NCBI RefSeq assembly: GCF_057098645.1
Contig: NZ_CM169472.1
Reading direction: 5' to 3' (one strand)
Length of the DNA: 64,000 nt
The notes under the pieces are model-generated. The model made no database searches, was not told the origin of the DNA, and saw nothing but the letters and a program-made list of their open reading frames with translations. The position numbers were made by a program, and so were the translations under genes. Positions 1-50,636 of this stretch are shown piece by piece. Position 1 is the first letter of the stretch, and every line of letters begins with the position of its first letter.

Positions 1-46
1 ACCAAAAAATCACTAAAAGTGCTCTTTATTGGGGATGGATTTGCCC

Positions 47-952
47 CTATATTTCCAGACATCTGTTATCACTTAACCCATTACAAGCCCGCTGCCGCAG
101 ATATTCCCGTGGCGAGCGATAACCCAGCGCACTATGCGGATGCCATTCGTTATAATGCTCGAACGCCTCTGCAAGGTTCTTTGCTGCCGTTAACCCGTCT
201 GGTTTGGGCATGATACTGATGTAGTCACGCTTTATCGTTTTCACGAAGCTCTCTGCTATTCCGTTACTCTCCGGACTCCGCACCGCCGTGTTCTTCGGTT
301 CAAGTCCCAACATCCGGGCGAACTGGCGTGTTTCATTAGCCCGGTAGCATGAACCATTATCCGTCAGCCACTCCACTGGAGACGACGGAAGATCGTTGCC
401 GAAGCGGCGTTCCACCGCTCCCAGCATGACGTCCTGTACTGTTTCACTGTTGAAGCCGCCGGTAGTCACCGCCCAGTGCAGTGCCTCACGATCACAGCAG
501 TCCAGCGCGAACGTGACACGCAGTCTCTCTCCGTTATCACAGCAGAACTCGAACCCGTCAGAGCACCATCGCTGATTGCTTTCTTTCACGGCCACTCTGC
601 CTGTATGTGCCCGTTTCGATGGCGGTACAGCAGGTTTTCGCTCAAGCAACAGCGCATTCTGGCGCATGATCCGGTAAACACGTTTGGCATTGATCGCAGG
701 CATACCATCAAGTTCTGCCTGTCTGCGAAGCAGCGCCCATACCCGACGATAACCATACGTGGGCAGCTCTCCGATAACATGGTGTATACGGAGAAGCACA
801 TCCGTATCATCAGTGTGACGACTGCGGCGGCCATCCATCCAGTCATCGGTTCGTCTGAGAATGACGTGCAACTGCGCACGCGACACCCGGAGACAACGGC
901 TGACTAAGCTTACTCCCCATCCCCGGGCAATAAGGGCGCGTGCGCTATCCAC
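47..952 (-). CDS. insD: IS2 transposase OrfB (InsD), DDE integrase-type catalytic domain
   Basis: 301-aa ORF recognised as IS3-family OrfB; overlaps insC as expected for a -1 frameshift OrfAB arrangement. Confidence 0.9.
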
Positions 953-1275
953 TTTTTTGCCCGTCCATATTCAACGGCTTCTTTGAGGAGTTCATTTTCC
1001 ATCGTTTTCTTGCCGAGCAGGCGCTGGAGTTCTTTAATCTGCTTCATGGCGGCAGCAAGTTCAGAGGCAGGAACAACCTGTTCTCCGGCGGCCACAGCAG
1101 TAAGACTTCCTTCCTGGTATTGCTTACGCCAGAGAAATAACTGGCTGGCTGCTACACCATGTTGCCGGGCAACGAGGGAGACCGTCATCCCCGGTTCAAA
1201 GCTCTGCTGAACAATTGCGATCTTTTCCTGTGTGGTACGCCGTCTGCGTTTCTCCGGCCCTAAGACATCAATCAT
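910..1275 (-). CDS. insC: IS2 transposase OrfA (InsC), helix-turn-helix DNA-binding subunit
   Basis: ORF 910..1320; likely start at internal Met ([24 protein letters not shown]...), giving 121 aa. Confidence 0.85.
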
Positions 1276-1341
1276 CTGTTCTCCAATGACTAGTCTAAAA
1301 ACTAGTATTAAGACTATCACTTATTTAAGTGATACTGGTTG

Positions 1342-1391
1342 TCTGGAGATTCAGGGGGCCAGTCTATCTGGAGATTCAGGGGGCCAGTCTA
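1342..1391. repeat. Perfect 2 x 25-bp tandem direct repeat of the IS2 terminal sequence (tctggagattcagggggccagtcta)
   Basis: Read directly: 1342-1366 and 1367-1391 are identical; the first copy is the IS2 end. Confidence 0.85.
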
Positions 1392-3968: not shown

Positions 3969-4442
3969 TTAGTGATGTTTTGGCTGCACCGCAACATACA
4001 TTTCGATATCCCAGTACCCATCTTCCGCGCCATTGTTCAAATAAACCTCGAAGCAGGGCTTTGGTAACATTTCATAAGCACTGTCCTGCAAGAGGCTATT
4101 AAAGAACTGATACCAGGGTTTAGCAAAATCATCACCGACTACACGAGCCACCGCCACGGCATATTGACCACCTGAAATTTCTGTCAGAATGACGCCCTCA
4201 CTGTTTTCGGGGAGCGTAAAGTTATTCGGTACCGTCACGACGGTGTCGCAGCGTAATTTTTCGGCGGGTGTTTCATCCGGATTGTCGTAATAGACAGCAA
4301 CCCACTCCTTCGGCACAATATTTTTGCTATCTACCCACATCATCAACTGCTCAAAACCTTTCTTTACCGTCTGTTCCCACGGGCCAACGAGATGGAAACC
4401 TGCAACGGTACGTTTATCTTCCTGCTTAATCTCGTAGTTCAT
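3969..4442 (-). CDS. sbmC: DNA gyrase inhibitor SbmC (GyrI)
   Basis: 157-aa ORF recognised as SbmC; LexA box immediately upstream. Confidence 0.9.
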
Positions 4443-10243: not shown

Positions 10244-10400
10244 GGTCATTCTCCTTTACGGTGATAACCGTCGCGTAAGCAAAAAATTGCCCCATTTTTT
10301 TGGATTCCTCAGCGACAACAACTGTCGATTTTTAGTAAATATCTATCCGGTACGAAGCCCGGCCTCTTGGTATGAATGATTGGTTTGAAGCAAAAAATAA

Positions 10401-10437
10401 CCGACGCTGATGAAACGTCGGTTTTTAGTCATTTTTT
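10401..10437. terminator. Candidate bidirectional intrinsic terminator between yeeY and plaP
   Basis: Hairpin accgacg...cgtcggt flanked by an A-run upstream and a T-run downstream. Confidence 0.5.
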
Positions 10438-10509
10438 GACAGCGGCGCATTGTGCCTAAATGGGGGGGAAATGACAAGAGAATGAGAGGCTTGTCATAAT
10501 AATTTTTCT

Positions 10510-11484: not shown

Positions 11485-12309
11485 TTACTCCAGCGGCATT
11501 ACCAGCGGATCGGGATACTGGTATTCAAACCCCAGTTCATTACAAATCCGACTGCCATCAATAATCTTACCTTTGCCGCTGTCCAGACTATTTCTGAACT
11601 GCGGAGGTTCCAGCCCCAGTAAACGGGCCATCTGCGGATAGAAAACATTACGCGCAGGGTGAGCTGGCGCACATATATTATAGATGTGTCCGCCTTTAGG
11701 TGCCTGTAACAACAGAGTGATAGCGCCAATAACATCTTCTAAATGGACTAAATTAACACCATGTTCACCATCAGGCGCGGTTTTTCCGGCAAAGAAGCGT
11801 CCGGGATGACGTCCCGGTCCGACCAGGCCCGCAAGACGCAGAATATCGACCGAAGTACCGGGTAAATTGTGCAGCCAGTCTTCGAGTTCTTCTAATACTC
11901 GTCCACTGTTGGTTACCGGATTACGCGAGGTGGTTTCTTTCACCGTGCCTTGCGCGTCGCCATAGACAGATGTTGAGCTGGTAAAAATAATTCGGGGAAT
12001 ACGATGGGCCAGCGCGCTATCCACTAACTCTTGTACCGCTTGTAAATAGAACTCATCGCCGGAGCCGCTACGACGTGCCGGAAGCGTAATGACCAGTGCA
12101 TCGGCATCCATCAGGGCATCCAGATCGTCAGAATCGCAAACTAACTCAGGTTCCATGCGAAGCAGATAGCTATCAATGCCACTCATTCGGGCCGCTTCGA
12201 CACCATCTTGTGTGGTTTTACTCCCGGTGACTTGCCAGCCTCGCGCTGAAAGTGACATCGCCAGCGGCATACCTAACCACCCTAACCCGACAATTGCGAC
12301 CTTTTTCAT
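11485..12309 (-). CDS. yeeZ: NAD-dependent epimerase/dehydratase-family protein YeeZ
   Basis: 274-aa ORF with N-terminal Rossmann GxxGxxG (VAIVGLGWLG). Confidence 0.85.
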   Translation of the reverse strand: MKKVAIVGLGWLGMPLAMSLSARGWQVTGSKTTQDGVEAARMSGIDSYLLRMEPELVCDSDDLDALMDADALVITLPARRSGSGDEFYLQAVQELVDSALAHRIPRIIFTSSTSVYGDAQGTVKETTSRNPVTNSGRVLEELEDWLHNLPGTSVDILRLAGLVGPGRHPGRFFAGKTAPDGEHGVNLVHLEDVIGAITLLLQAPKGGHIYNICAPAHPARNVFYPQMARLLGLEPPQFRNSLDSGKGKIIDGSRICNELGFEYQYPDPLVMPLE

Positions 12310-12391
12310 CCGTTATCTCCTGATACACCTTAGATCTATAAGGCTACGCTAGCGTATCAAAACTGACAATTCATTCTATGAATGAATCTGT

Positions 12392-12646
12392 TCAATAATG
12401 ATAACGACATGCTGCAATGAGCAGTGAATCATCAGTAACCGCGTATACCAGACGGTGCTCCTCTGTAATGCGTCGGGACCAGAAACCTGACAAATTATGT
12501 TTCAGGGGTTCTGGTTTCCCCTTACCTTCAAATGGTGTTCTGCGGGTATCTTTGATAAGTTCATTGATCTTTTTAACAATTCGCTTATCTGTTTCCTGCC
12601 AGTACAGATAATCATCCCATGATTCCTCAGACCAGATTAGTTTCAC
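12392..12646 (-). CDS. yoeB: Type II toxin YoeB (ribosome-dependent mRNA interferase)
   Basis: 84-aa ORF recognised as YoeB; overlaps yefM by 4 nt. Confidence 0.9.
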
Positions 12647-12894
12647 TCAATAATGTCCTTTTCCGTTCCTTTGCCTGATTTCAGGCTATCGATTGAGTCC
12701 ATCAATCTCCGGGCGTTAGCGGGGGAACGCAGTAGATAAGCCGTCTCTTCCAGCGAGTTGTATTCTTCGAGTGACATCAGAACACAAGCCTCTCCATTCT
12801 GACGAGTAATGAGGATCGGGGCATGATCTTCAACGGCTTTCATCATTGTTGCCGACAAATTCTGACGCGCTTCGCTGTAACTAATTGTACGCAT
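12643..12894 (-). CDS. yefM: Type II antitoxin YefM
   Basis: 83-aa ORF recognised as YefM, directly upstream of yoeB. Confidence 0.9.
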
Positions 12895-12904
12895 GTCAAT
12901 CTCC

Positions 12905-12932
12905 TCTTTTGTACAGCTTATTGTACAATGAT
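12905..12932. promoter_or_regulatory. yefM-yoeB operator/promoter with two TGTACA core repeats
   Basis: tgtaca at 12910-12915 and 12922-12927 (centres 12 bp apart), 16 bp upstream of the yefM start. Confidence 0.6.
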
Positions 12933-13104
12933 AGACGTTGATTCACTATTTATTAATTAGTTTGTAGATCAAGACATTGTCAGTGAGACGAAAAATCCAG
13001 GCTTCGCTATTTTGGGTACCGTCAGGTTAGAGGACAGTCCTCTTAGCGCCCTCCTTTCCCCGCTCATTCATTAAACAAATCCATCGCCATAAAATATATA
13101 AAAA

Positions 13105-13145
13105 AGCCCTTGCTTTCTAACGTGAAAGTGGTTTAGGTTAAAAGA
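13105..13145 (+). promoter_or_regulatory. Candidate his operon promoter (-35 ttgctt, -10 taggtt)
   Basis: ttgctt at 13110-13115 and taggtt at 13134-13139, about 40 bp upstream of hisL; hexamer choice is by eye. Confidence 0.45.
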
Positions 13146-13177
13146 CATCAGTTGAATAAACATTCACAGAGACTTTT

Positions 13178-13228
13178 ATGACACGCGTTCAATTTAAACA
13201 CCACCATCATCACCATCATCCTGACTAG
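13178..13228 (+). CDS. hisL: his operon leader peptide (16 aa, seven consecutive His codons)
   Basis: ATG ACA CGC GTT CAA TTT AAA CAC CAC CAT CAT CAC CAT CAT CCT GAC TAG read directly. Confidence 0.95.
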   Translation: MTRVQFKHHHHHHHPD

Positions 13229-13289
13229 TCTTTCAGGCGATGTGTGCTGGAAGACATTCAGATCTTCCAGTGGTGCATGAACGCATGAG

Positions 13290-13330
13290 AGAGCCCCCGG
13301 AAGATCACCTTCCGGGGGCTTTTTTATTGC
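13290..13330 (+). terminator. his attenuator terminator hairpin plus U-tract
   Basis: agcccccggaagatcaccttccgggggc followed by ttttttatt, immediately upstream of hisG. Confidence 0.9.
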
Positions 13331-13373
13331 GCGGTTGATAACGGTTCAGACAGGTTTAAAGAGGAATAAGAAA

Positions 13374-14273
13374 ATGACAGACAACACTCGTTTACGCATA
13401 GCTATGCAGAAATCCGGCCGTTTAAGTGATGACTCACGCGAATTGCTGGCGCGCTGTGGCATTAAAATCAATCTTCACACCCAGCGCCTGATCGCGATGG
13501 CAGAAAACATGCCGATTGATATTCTGCGCGTGCGTGACGACGACATTCCCGGTCTGGTAATGGACGGCGTGGTAGACCTTGGAATTATCGGCGAAAACGT
13601 GCTGGAAGAAGAACTGCTTAACCGCCGCGCCCAGGGTGAAGATCCGCGCTACTTTACCCTGCGTCGACTGGATTTCGGCGGCTGCCGCCTTTCGCTGGCA
13701 ACGCCGGTTGATGAAGCCTGGGACGGCCCGCTCTCCTTAAATGGTAAACGTATCGCCACCTCTTATCCTCACCTGCTCAAGCGTTATCTCGACCAGAAAG
13801 GCATCTCTTTTAAATCCTGCTTACTGAACGGTTCTGTTGAAGTCGCCCCGCGTGCCGGACTGGCGGATGCGATTTGCGATCTGGTTTCCACCGGTGCCAC
13901 GCTGGAAGCAAACGGCCTGCGTGAAGTCGAAGTTATCTACCGCTCGAAAGCCTGCCTGATCCAGCGCGATGGCGAAATGGAAGAATCCAAACAGCAACTG
14001 ATCGACAAACTGCTGACCCGTATTCAGGGTGTGATCCAGGCGCGCGAATCAAAATACATCATGATGCACGCACCGACCGAACGTCTGGATGAAGTCATCG
14101 CCCTGCTGCCAGGTGCCGAACGCCCAACCATTCTGCCGCTGGCGGGTGACCAACAACGCGTAGCGATGCACATGGTCAGTAGCGAAACCCTGTTCTGGGA
14201 AACGATGGAAAAACTGAAAGCGCTGGGTGCCAGTTCAATCCTGGTCCTGCCGATTGAGAAGATGATGGAGTGA
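13374..14273 (+). CDS. hisG: ATP phosphoribosyltransferase
   Basis: ORF 13335..14273 trimmed to [16 protein letters not shown] (ATG at 13374); 299 aa. Confidence 0.95.
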
Positions 14274-29438: not shown

Positions 29439-30230
29439 TTATAAACGATTACTCATTACACCATTACAAATAATATCTTTCTGTTCAGGTGTTGGATAGC
29501 TTATCAATACTGCCCTATACTTCCCTTTAAATACAAAAAGACTACCAGCTGCCGCACCAACGATGCCACATTGGTCAATCAGTGCAGAAAGATGGTCATA
29601 ACTACCAGCGCCCCCGAGAAACGTAACAGGAATATTTATTTGCGATTTGATAGTTGAGCAATATGCAACGTCATATCCTCCCATGACACCATCATTATCT
29701 ACAAAATTGATGACAATTTCTCCAGCTCCCAGATCGGCCATTTCCTTTGCAAACGAGACGGGATCGATTTTATGCTTGCGAGTGTTATTCCTTGTCGAAA
29801 GTTCATAGCCCTTTGAGAATAGACCTTTTCGTTTGATAATATCCAGCACAACAACAACACTTTGTTTTCCAACCGCTTCTGCCAATTCTCTAACAAGATT
29901 AGGATTTTCAACAGCTGCTGAACTTATTGATACCTTTTCAACACCAAGAGAGATAATTTTTGTAGCCTGTGCTACGCTGGTTACGCCTCCTCCATAGCAT
30001 AAAGGCATACGGCATTCCGCTGCGAGTTTTTTTATTAAATCATAATTAGGTTCGAGTCCCCTGGATGTCGCATCAATATCTAGGACCATCAATTCATCAG
30101 CTTCTTTCTCATTGAAAATTTTGACGGCATTAATTGGATCACCAACATACTTAGGGGATTTAAAATTAACTGTTTTGACTAAGCCAGAATCGTGGATAAG
30201 TAAACAGGGTATGATTCTTGGTCTAAGCAT
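29439..30230 (-). CDS. wbuZ: HisF-like cyclase subunit of an N-acetyl sugar amidotransferase system (WbuZ)
   Basis: ORF 29439..30248; start MLRPRIIPCLL aligns with the HisF N-terminus [11 protein letters not shown]; paralog of hisF at 19026. Confidence 0.8.
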   Translation of the reverse strand: MLRPRIIPCLLIHDSGLVKTVNFKSPKYVGDPINAVKIFNEKEADELMVLDIDATSRGLEPNYDLIKKLAAECRMPLCYGGGVTSVAQATKIISLGVEKVSISSAAVENPNLVRELAEAVGKQSVVVVLDIIKRKGLFSKGYELSTRNNTRKHKIDPVSFAKEMADLGAGEIVINFVDNDGVMGGYDVAYCSTIKSQINIPVTFLGGAGSYDHLSALIDQCGIVGAAAGSLFVFKGKYRAVLISYPTPEQKDIICNGVMSNRL

Positions 30231-30234
30231 GCTA

Positions 30235-30849
30235 TTAGATCTCTGCAAAATTTTTTAGTAGTTGGGATCCCGATGAATGGCTTTTCTCTGGATGACATTG
30301 AATACCATATATGTTATTCCTGCTAATTATACAATGAAAATTATGACCATAATTAGCAGTTGCCAATACATCACCTGTGTCATCACATTCGTAATAGTAT
30401 GAGTGTAAAAAATAAAATGAAGGTTCTACTGCGAAATCTTTCAGCAATGGTGTACTTGTTCTTTTAATTAAATTATTCCATCCCATGTGGGGCATCGGGA
30501 GGTTTTGTGAAGAGATATTGCTACTAAATGCTCGAACCGTACCTGGAATCCATCCTAAACCTGGCATGCTCCCCTCCTCACTAGAGGTCGCAAGCATTTG
30601 CATACCCACACAGATACCAATAATTGGAATCTTTTCTTCATATACACGTTTTTCAATACTATCTCGTAAACCTGAATTATTAAAAAGAGTCATAGCTTGA
30701 TCAAAAGCCCCAACTCCAGGCAGTATTAAATGTGTAGCACTAAAAATATCATCAACAGAACGAGCAACACCCGCATTAATGCCTAGTCGCTTATATACAT
30801 TCAAAAATGCTTGTATATTTCCAATACCATAATCAATGATTGTAATCAT
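30235..30849 (-). CDS. wbuY: HisH-like glutamine amidotransferase subunit (WbuY)
   Basis: ORF 30235..30912 trimmed to MITIIDYGIGNIQ (abuts the wbuX stop); class I GATase with catalytic Cys (GICVGMQ); paralog of hisH. Confidence 0.8.
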   Translation of the reverse strand: MITIIDYGIGNIQAFLNVYKRLGINAGVARSVDDIFSATHLILPGVGAFDQAMTLFNNSGLRDSIEKRVYEEKIPIIGICVGMQMLATSSEEGSMPGLGWIPGTVRAFSSNISSQNLPMPHMGWNNLIKRTSTPLLKDFAVEPSFYFLHSYYYECDDTGDVLATANYGHNFHCIISRNNIYGIQCHPEKSHSSGSQLLKNFAEI

Positions 30850-50444: not shown

Positions 50445-50519
50445 GTCGTTACCCTTTTTCAGGCAATAGTTGGCCCTGACCGAAACGGCCAATTTTGTTT
50501 TTGTCGTTATTTACATCTC

Positions 50520-50636
<117 letters not shown>

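Follow-up and report, generated by a model that had tools for sequence, protein, structure and literature searches.

The 64-kb stretch of DNA analyzed here (the window) almost certainly carries the canonical chromosomal type II toxin-antitoxin (TA) operon of E. coli, yefM-yoeB, intact and in an O145:H28-type genome. The antitoxin gene yefM lies directly upstream of the toxin gene yoeB on one strand and with overlapping codons, which is the type II gene order, and both proteins are identical to those of the K-12 operon (b2017/b4539), which occupies the same place between yeeZ and hisL. As the original prediction had said, the module is known biology and not new: its proteins are those already characterized as YefM and YoeB, and RefSeq already labels identical DNA yoeB and yefM in many genomes. 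Because yefM-yoeB is among the best characterized TA pairs and this exact DNA is annotated, the locus carries little weight as a discovery. Its confirmation instead validates a first call made unaided, fixes the anatomy of the operon with respect to strand and to deviations in the promoter and operator, and gives the module a population context.

Toxin and antitoxin genes

The toxin gene yoeB (12392-12646, minus strand, GTG start) encodes an 84-aa ribosome-dependent mRNA endoribonuclease, identified by ORF listing, family models and PDB identity. Its product matches the Pfam family YoeB_toxin PF06769 over profile positions 1-80 of 80 (E 2.8e-43; 146.3 bits, cutoff 27) and the NCBIfam equivalog TIGR02116 (132.8 bits, cutoff 51.8), and it is 100% identical over 84/84 residues to chain E of PDB 2A6Q. 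The identical sequence is also present in the ribosome complexes 4V8X, 6OTR, 6OXA and 6OXI. YoeB has its toxin fold class and A-site mRNA cleavage in common with RelBE, YafQ and the other ribosome-dependent mRNA interferases of the RelE superfamily, from which it differs in that its Glu/His acid-base pair is complete, as it is in RNase T1/Sa (PMC3814384). Since the RelE/StbE and YafQ models gave weak matches that fall under their cutoffs, the toxin is assigned to YoeB proper; the Pfam ParE_toxin model scored 25.2 bits, narrowly above its 23-bit cutoff.

The antitoxin gene yefM (12643-12894, minus strand, ATG start) was identified by the same three lines of evidence and encodes an 83-aa protein that serves as antitoxin and primary transcriptional repressor. 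YefM matches Pfam PhdYeFM_antitox PF02604 (E 6.1e-28; 96.8 bits, cutoff 29.8) and the NCBIfam equivalog NF008499 (186.6 bits, cutoff 121), and is 100% identical (83/83) to residues 4-86 of chain A in PDB 2A6Q. Two N-terminal arginines, R10 and R31, are both found in the window's YefM; we take these to be the residues for operator recognition, in a numbering that reportedly goes back to Bailey & Hayes 2009. "Dual conserved arginine residues" have been described for YefM (PMC3920265).

Between the two genes, the TGA stop of yefM and the GTG start of yoeB share 4 nt, GTGA at 12643-12646, within the junction ATTGAGTGAAACTA (minus strand ATT GAG TGA / GTG AAA). This is the characteristic overlap that had been claimed for the module and, as far as it can be read from the sequence, it implies translational coupling of yefM and yoeB. 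The original prediction had named a frameshift, a premature stop or the loss of YoeB catalytic residues as the lesions that would speak against an intact module. Full-length alignment to the characterized YefM and YoeB, at 100% identity, finds no frameshift or premature stop in either gene, and Glu46, Arg59, Arg65, His83 and Tyr84 of YoeB, which make up its catalytic and substrate-binding residues, all stand at the expected positions. At the DNA level the genes differ from those of K-12 MG1655 by four codons in yefM (4/4 synonymous) and five in yoeB (5/5 synonymous); that all nine differences over 504 coding positions are silent is as expected from purifying selection. Plus-strand ORFs of 64, 41 and 45 aa run antisense to the module and are mechanical ORFs without supporting evidence.

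Promoter and operator

The element TGTACANNNNNNTGTACA, of the form TGTACA-N6-TGTACA, occurs once in the window (12910-12927) and in 0/100 dinucleotide-preserving shuffles. Its hexamers at 12910-12915 and 12922-12927 bear out the claim of two TGTACA cores 12 bp apart upstream of yefM: they are spaced 12 bp centre to centre, lie less than 80 bp from the yefM ATG, and begin 21 nt (proximal) and 33 nt (distal) upstream of it, exactly as in K-12. K-12 further shares the GTGA overlap, the Shine-Dalgarno sequence and the -10 box TACAAT with the window.

Around these cores the elements of the published K-12 promoter can be placed one by one. The Shine-Dalgarno sequence GAGGAG (12901-12906, minus strand), read directly from the sequence, precedes the yefM ATG by 6 nt and fits the published ribosome binding site, which has a 6-bp distance to the start codon (PMC1802561). 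With the yefM ATG at +21, as published (PMC1802561), +1 falls on the G at 12914 (minus strand), as in K-12. The short operator repeat S, whose TGTACA core is 12910-12915 and the same in K-12, spans this +1. The long repeat L, TCATTGTACAATAA in minus-strand reading, occupies 12918-12931, and its core at 12922-12927 is again that of K-12. Inside L lies the -10 box TACAAT of the promoter pyy (12920-12925, minus strand), equal to the published TAcAAT (PMC7730913), and 17 bp from it is the -35 box TAGTGA (12943-12948, minus strand), which in K-12 reads TAGTTA and thus differs at base 12944. The published description has a -35 box TaGttA, a 17-bp linker and a G at +1, with the whole -10 box covered by L and S surrounding the start site (PMC7730913). 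With the two boxes and the ATG at +21 as reference, the window has this architecture: L lies over the -10 box and S over +1. The interval 12392-12932 accordingly takes in both genes, both hexamers and the -10 box, and ends before the -35 box.

Comparison with the published promoter was the check proposed for the operator, and it yields agreement in the cores, their spacing, the -10 box, the Shine-Dalgarno sequence and +1, and disagreement in L, in two spacer bases and in the -35 box. In K-12 the L repeat is 5'-TCATTGTACAATGA-3', and S has the same TGTACA core at 12 bp centre to centre (PMC1802561). The window's L repeat agrees with this perfect palindrome at 13/14 positions, the variant base, 12919, being in the outer arm; the 14-bp palindrome is therefore imperfect here, while the 10-bp inner palindrome ATTGTACAAT is perfect. 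The imperfection does not exclude L from the operator family, because in the published survey only the cores and their spacing are common to all members (PMC1802561). The same change at 12919 abolishes an in-frame upstream ATG, described for K-12 as an alternative start at -7 (PMC1802561). Between the hexamers the window reads ATAAGC as opposed to ATGAAC in K-12, and four more changes fall in the linker between the -35 and -10 boxes. A related arrangement is known from the homologous TA pair Axe-Txe of the Enterococcus faecium plasmid pRUM, which, going by its published description, has equally spaced L and S TGTACA repeats (PMC1802561, PMC7730913). Its pat promoter differs in that the operator sits in the -35/-10 linker, and it is about 40 times stronger and more poorly repressed (PMC7730913).

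These deviations raise the question of whether the module, although intact, has a minority promoter-operator allele that is regulated unlike that of K-12, through weaker binding of YefM to L or through higher basal transcription. Differences from K-12 are denser upstream of the ATG (7/71 positions) than in the coding sequence (9/504). The extra palindromic bases have been suggested to favor YefM binding to L (PMC1802561), and promoter strength is set by the -35 box (PMC7730913), which is changed here. As a consequence of the upstream changes, a consensus scan also reports an overlapping promoter-like site, TTAATA-17-TATCAT (12956-12928), with a score of 9/12. The allele is uncommon: its exact 66-bp form (12895-12960) is found in 200/5426 complete E. 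coli genomes, and of nine other strains sampled one has it and eight have a perfect L repeat. Against this, the allele retains both cores at the same spacing, together with the -10 box and +1, and TAGTGA and TAGTTA score equally (3/6) against the -35 consensus. The scan that reports the additional site finds no excess of sites over shuffles (2 versus a mean of 2.6), and a plasmid copy of the module in E. marmotae also reads ...TTGTACAATAA. Among homologues, moreover, spacers and flanks are diverse and the cores and 6-bp gap constant (PMC1802561). We therefore regard altered regulation as unlikely.

Because homologues tolerate such variation in spacers and flanks (PMC1802561), and because it is altered spacing that breaks cooperative binding (PMC3920265), the regulatory allele in the window is most likely functionally equivalent to that of K-12; the chance that it differs quantitatively is modest. 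The features that set apart the O145:H28/S88-type allele are the imperfect L, the -35 box TAGTGA, the strengthened TTAATA-17-TATCAT and the missing upstream in-frame ATG. It is correspondingly doubtful that this allele has another level of autorepression or another start site than its K-12 counterpart, the subject of all published regulation studies; if it did, lineages with identical proteins would differ in how easily YoeB is released.

Genomic context

The module had been placed directly upstream of the his operon. It does adjoin that operon, but as a minus-strand operon on the opposite strand and in divergent orientation: hisL begins on the plus strand at 13178, with the Rfam His_leader at 13204-13327, and 283 bp separate the start codons. 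Rfam searches of the whole window at the gathering threshold, and of 12250-13400 with permissive E-values, report the His leader alone in or beside the module and thus give no hint of an antisense or sRNA component.

On the other side, an AT-rich inverted repeat, ATTCATTC-TAT-GAATGAAT (12369-12387, minus strand), begins 4 nt 3' of the yoeB stop codon and could form a hairpin of -14 kcal/mol (z = -1.73). It folds modestly better than shuffled sequences and would at best be a weak terminator. The hairpin is kept in O157:H7 and E. albertii and partly in Salmonella, including genomes that lack the module; it was therefore rejected as a part of the cassette and assigned to the yeeZ flank. A consensus scan for intrinsic terminators found no clear one after yoeB, its single hit being an antisense-strand site inside yoeB.

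E. coli O145:H28 strain RM12761 matches the window from base 1391 onward at 99.95% identity, and the window includes the O145 O-antigen cluster; judged by this identity, the window is part of an E. coli O145:H28-type chromosome. The annotation of that genome offers a partial test of the statement that the window has no TA module besides yefM-yoeB: it contains no other TA from 1391 onward, and to this extent the statement stands. Collinearity over the whole window would have placed the type IV TA pair cbeA/cbtA at 294-1124. This was rejected by BLAST: the first 1390 bases differ from RM12761, and cbeA/cbtA is therefore absent from the window. An IS2-like element takes up ~35-1390, where RM12761 has the cbeA/cbtA pair just to the left.

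Distribution and origin of the module

Among 5426 complete E. coli genomes, 4211 (78%) carry the module, whereas in 1197 (22%), O157:H7 included, an unrelated filler of ~213 bp lies between the same flanks; in a few genomes IS elements have inserted at the yeeZ-hisL site. The site is thus a clean two-allele locus in E. coli. Alignments delimit the segment specific to module-carrying genomes as 12393-13040 (~650 bp), in place of which O157:H7-type E. coli and other Escherichia have the filler, in which two REP-type repeats form a pair. One 27-mer of the filler is found again at 50590 and 61015 in the window. Many O145:H28 genomes, as well as strains such as S88, have an 871-bp yeeZ-hisL interval that is 100% identical to the window's.

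Beyond E. coli, a scan with a hisL pattern over one genome per species returned 39 loci, 36 of which held the flank upstream of hisL. Only one of these 36 has the module next to hisL (E. whittamii, with 99-100% protein identity), and the other 35 are without it. E. albertii and two other Escherichia species have the REP filler in a 426-bp interval; in Salmonella, Citrobacter, Enterobacter, Leclercia, Kosakonia and others yeeZ lies ~165-180 bp from hisL with neither filler nor module. The species scan and the two-allele locus together give an order of events in which a short interval came first and received a REP insertion in Escherichia, whose core then gave way to the yefM-yoeB cassette in the lineage of E. 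coli; the filler is the ancestral of the two E. coli alleles. The junctions lie at the yoeB stop codon (~12392) on the left and near 13040 on the right. The module is a derived, horizontally acquired cassette that replaced the REP pair between yeeZ and hisL.

Cassettes homologous to the one in the window, at 73-85% DNA identity and 80-95% protein identity, occur in Citrobacter, Salmonella, E. marmotae, Enterobacter and Pantoea on plasmids, several of which belong to IncF. Unlike the window's module they are plasmid-located, with flanks that do not resemble the chromosomal locus. They share the two-gene layout, and all catalytic and DNA-binding residues are kept, as is the GAGTGAA junction in five homologues. 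The L core, TTGTACAAT or (C)ATTGTACAAT, is likewise conserved, and the second hexamer follows exactly 12 bp downstream. This S hexamer differs from the perfect TGTACA, being AGTACA or TGAACA, and the surrounding sequence varies. DNA homology to the plasmid copies spans window positions 12392-12958, which is to say the two genes and the promoter and no more; because it covers exactly these, the cassette is taken to be a self-contained mobile unit.

Predicted function

That the module is functional and autoregulated, as had been proposed, we infer from its identity to the characterized operon. The mechanism outlined below follows published work on the identical proteins; the window itself shows that the genes are intact, that the proteins are identical and that the operator is conserved and in the expected place. 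Transcription would start from the weak sigma-70 promoter pyy (-35 TAGTGA, 17 bp, -10 TACAAT, +1 G at 12914), with yefM translated from GAGGAG-N6-ATG and yoeB coupled to it through the GTGA overlap. One YoeB would be bound per YefM dimer, and the resulting distortion of the YoeB active site would neutralize the toxin. YefM alone is expected to occupy the L repeat (-10 box) first and the S repeat (+1) second, whereas the YefM-YoeB complex would bind both repeats cooperatively, in a manner that needs the 12-bp spacing, and would occlude RNA polymerase sterically; YoeB would in this way act as co-repressor with YefM.

YefM is a Lon substrate and is degraded by Lon. On depletion of this labile antitoxin, free YoeB could enter the ribosomal A site. 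Given its identity to the characterized protein, YoeB would then be expected to cleave mRNA there in a ribosome-dependent manner and to arrest growth. The cut would fall past the second nucleotide of the A-site codon, with Glu46 as general base, His83 as general acid, and Arg65 and Tyr84 stabilizing the transition state, as published for YoeB (PMC3814384). Regulation of yefM-yoeB has been summarized elsewhere (PMC3920265).

The physiological role of the operon is unsettled in the literature. Heat stress activates YoeB, and an earlier tie of yefM-yoeB to persister formation has since been withdrawn. In strain CFT073, deletion of yefM-yoeB lowered bladder colonization in competition assays only (PMC3464220).

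A further reading makes the module mainly an anti-phage (abortive infection) defense system, as opposed to a stress-response or addiction cassette; the original prediction had called it defense-like. Type II TA modules are generally linked to phage defense in reviews (PMC10532202), and the patchy distribution and horizontal acquisition described above are often true of defense genes. Nevertheless, the label is unsupported, since PADLOC-DB v2 has no family matching YoeB or YefM at E <= 0.001, and a PADLOC scan gave nothing convincing for YoeB, YefM and eight ORFs nearby, ten proteins in all from 1-12.9 kb. No defense genes are annotated among the neighbors, no sequence related to the cassette is present among 50,697 phage records, and a limited literature search found no anti-phage phenotype of E. 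coli yefM-yoeB. A primary role in defense is thus quite improbable. One transposase in the PADLOC scan gave a marginal DrmC match (E = 7.8e-4).

The module is not kept equally well in all E. coli strains. The YoeB allele R65L, which alters a catalytic residue, is present in 413/5426 complete genomes (~8%; exact match over 67 bp), one sampled strain has both a yoeB frameshift and a mutated L core, TGCACA, and another has YefM R10C. Because the E. coli population shows both absence of the module and R65L decay, the word "intact" needs strain-by-strain checking. Such decay notwithstanding, it is scarcely credible that the genes in the window look intact and are cryptically dead, silent or non-toxic in this strain, given that none of these lesions is found there, that the coding substitutions relative to K-12 are all synonymous, that the core promoter elements are intact and that both proteins are identical to active, crystallized ones.

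Alternative alleles between yeeZ and hisL

Comparison of the yeeZ-hisL interval across complete genomes showed that E. coli carries one of two alleles at this position, represented by the yefM-yoeB cassette (window 12393-13040) and by a filler of approximately 213 bp containing a REP pair (L002:3075-3285, and the comparison loci L019, L035, L039, L041 and L055, extracted from other genomes). The cassette was found in 4211 of 5426 E. coli genomes and the filler in 1197, and the filler also occupies this site in E. albertii and two further Escherichia species. Locus comparison of Salmonella, Citrobacter and Enterobacter found neither cassette nor filler. This distribution of alleles within and beyond E. 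coli argues that the yefM-yoeB cassette is the derived state, which would have taken the place of the REP pair.

In K-12, the right junction of the cassette forms a perfect hairpin with a 9-bp stem (CTAAGAGGA-CAG-TCCTCTTAG), while in the window (13026-13046) the hairpin is shorter owing to substitutions (GTTAGAGGA...). Only the right arm is common to genomes lacking the module, which indicates that the hairpin was created by insertion of the cassette.

Sequence variation within the module

In K-12 (L001:3739), the genuine yefM start codon is preceded, nine codons earlier and in the same frame, by another ATG, which formerly gave rise to a 92-aa yefM annotation. In the window the corresponding codon is ATA (variant base 12919), and there is therefore no ambiguity in the yefM start; the variant base is also the sole mismatch of the long palindrome (L) upstream of the gene.

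Damaged alleles of the module were found in other E. coli genomes. One is YoeB R65L (CGT to CTT), seen in E. coli M24 (L010:212-278) and 412 further genomes; the 67-bp segment containing the substitution has an exact match in 413 of the 5426 complete E. coli genomes. Arg65 stabilizes the transition state in YoeB (PMC3814384), and the R65L protein is probably a naturally disarmed toxin; in M24 it is accompanied by YoeB T19A and YefM G74D. RefSeq annotation still treats the R65L yoeB as intact. In E. coli LCP30S3_I5 (L011), yoeB is frameshifted, the core of the L operator has become TGCACA, and YefM has several substitutions, while fS149a (L006) combines YefM R10C, affecting a DNA-binding arginine, with YoeB D72Y. 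Both are examples of yefM-yoeB decay.

Other features of the window

At the left end, an IS2-like element of the IS3 family (35-1390, minus strand) encodes orfA (910-1320, minus, 136 aa) and orfB (47-952, minus, 301 aa). The inverted-repeat terminus of the element is tandemly duplicated over approximately 24 bp (1343-1390). RM12761, the most similar genome, lacks an IS at this site; its sequence differs to the left of the position equivalent to window 1391, where it contains cbeA, yeeW and a cbtA with a frameshift, all belonging to the CP4-44 prophage remnant. A copy of IS1 separates galF from the colanic acid gene wcaM (41301-42300 and 42190-43485), and wcaM is annotated in the near-identical RM12761 as truncated with its C-terminus missing, so the colanic acid cluster looks disrupted in its final gene.

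SbmC (GyrI), a DNA gyrase inhibitor, shields gyrase from microcin B17 and CcdB. Its gene (3969-4442, minus; named from the annotation of a near-identical genome) is arguably a "protective" gene absent from the survey behind the original prediction, and PADLOC returned no match for its product.

Within the O145 O-antigen cluster, hisH-like and AglZ/HisF2-like genes (29439-30849, minus) adjoin an N-acetyl sugar amidotransferase gene and are paralogs of genes in the his operon, located 10 kb away in the window. Rfam matches scoring above the gathering threshold, all on the minus strand, comprised the STnc240 sRNA (10390-10464, 68 bits), flanked by yoeI/plaP and yeeY; a JUMPstart element (40007-40045) upstream of the O145 O-antigen cluster; and, in the colanic acid cluster, an algC RNA motif (50449-50498) that occupies the cpsG-cpsB interval immediately 5' of cpsG.
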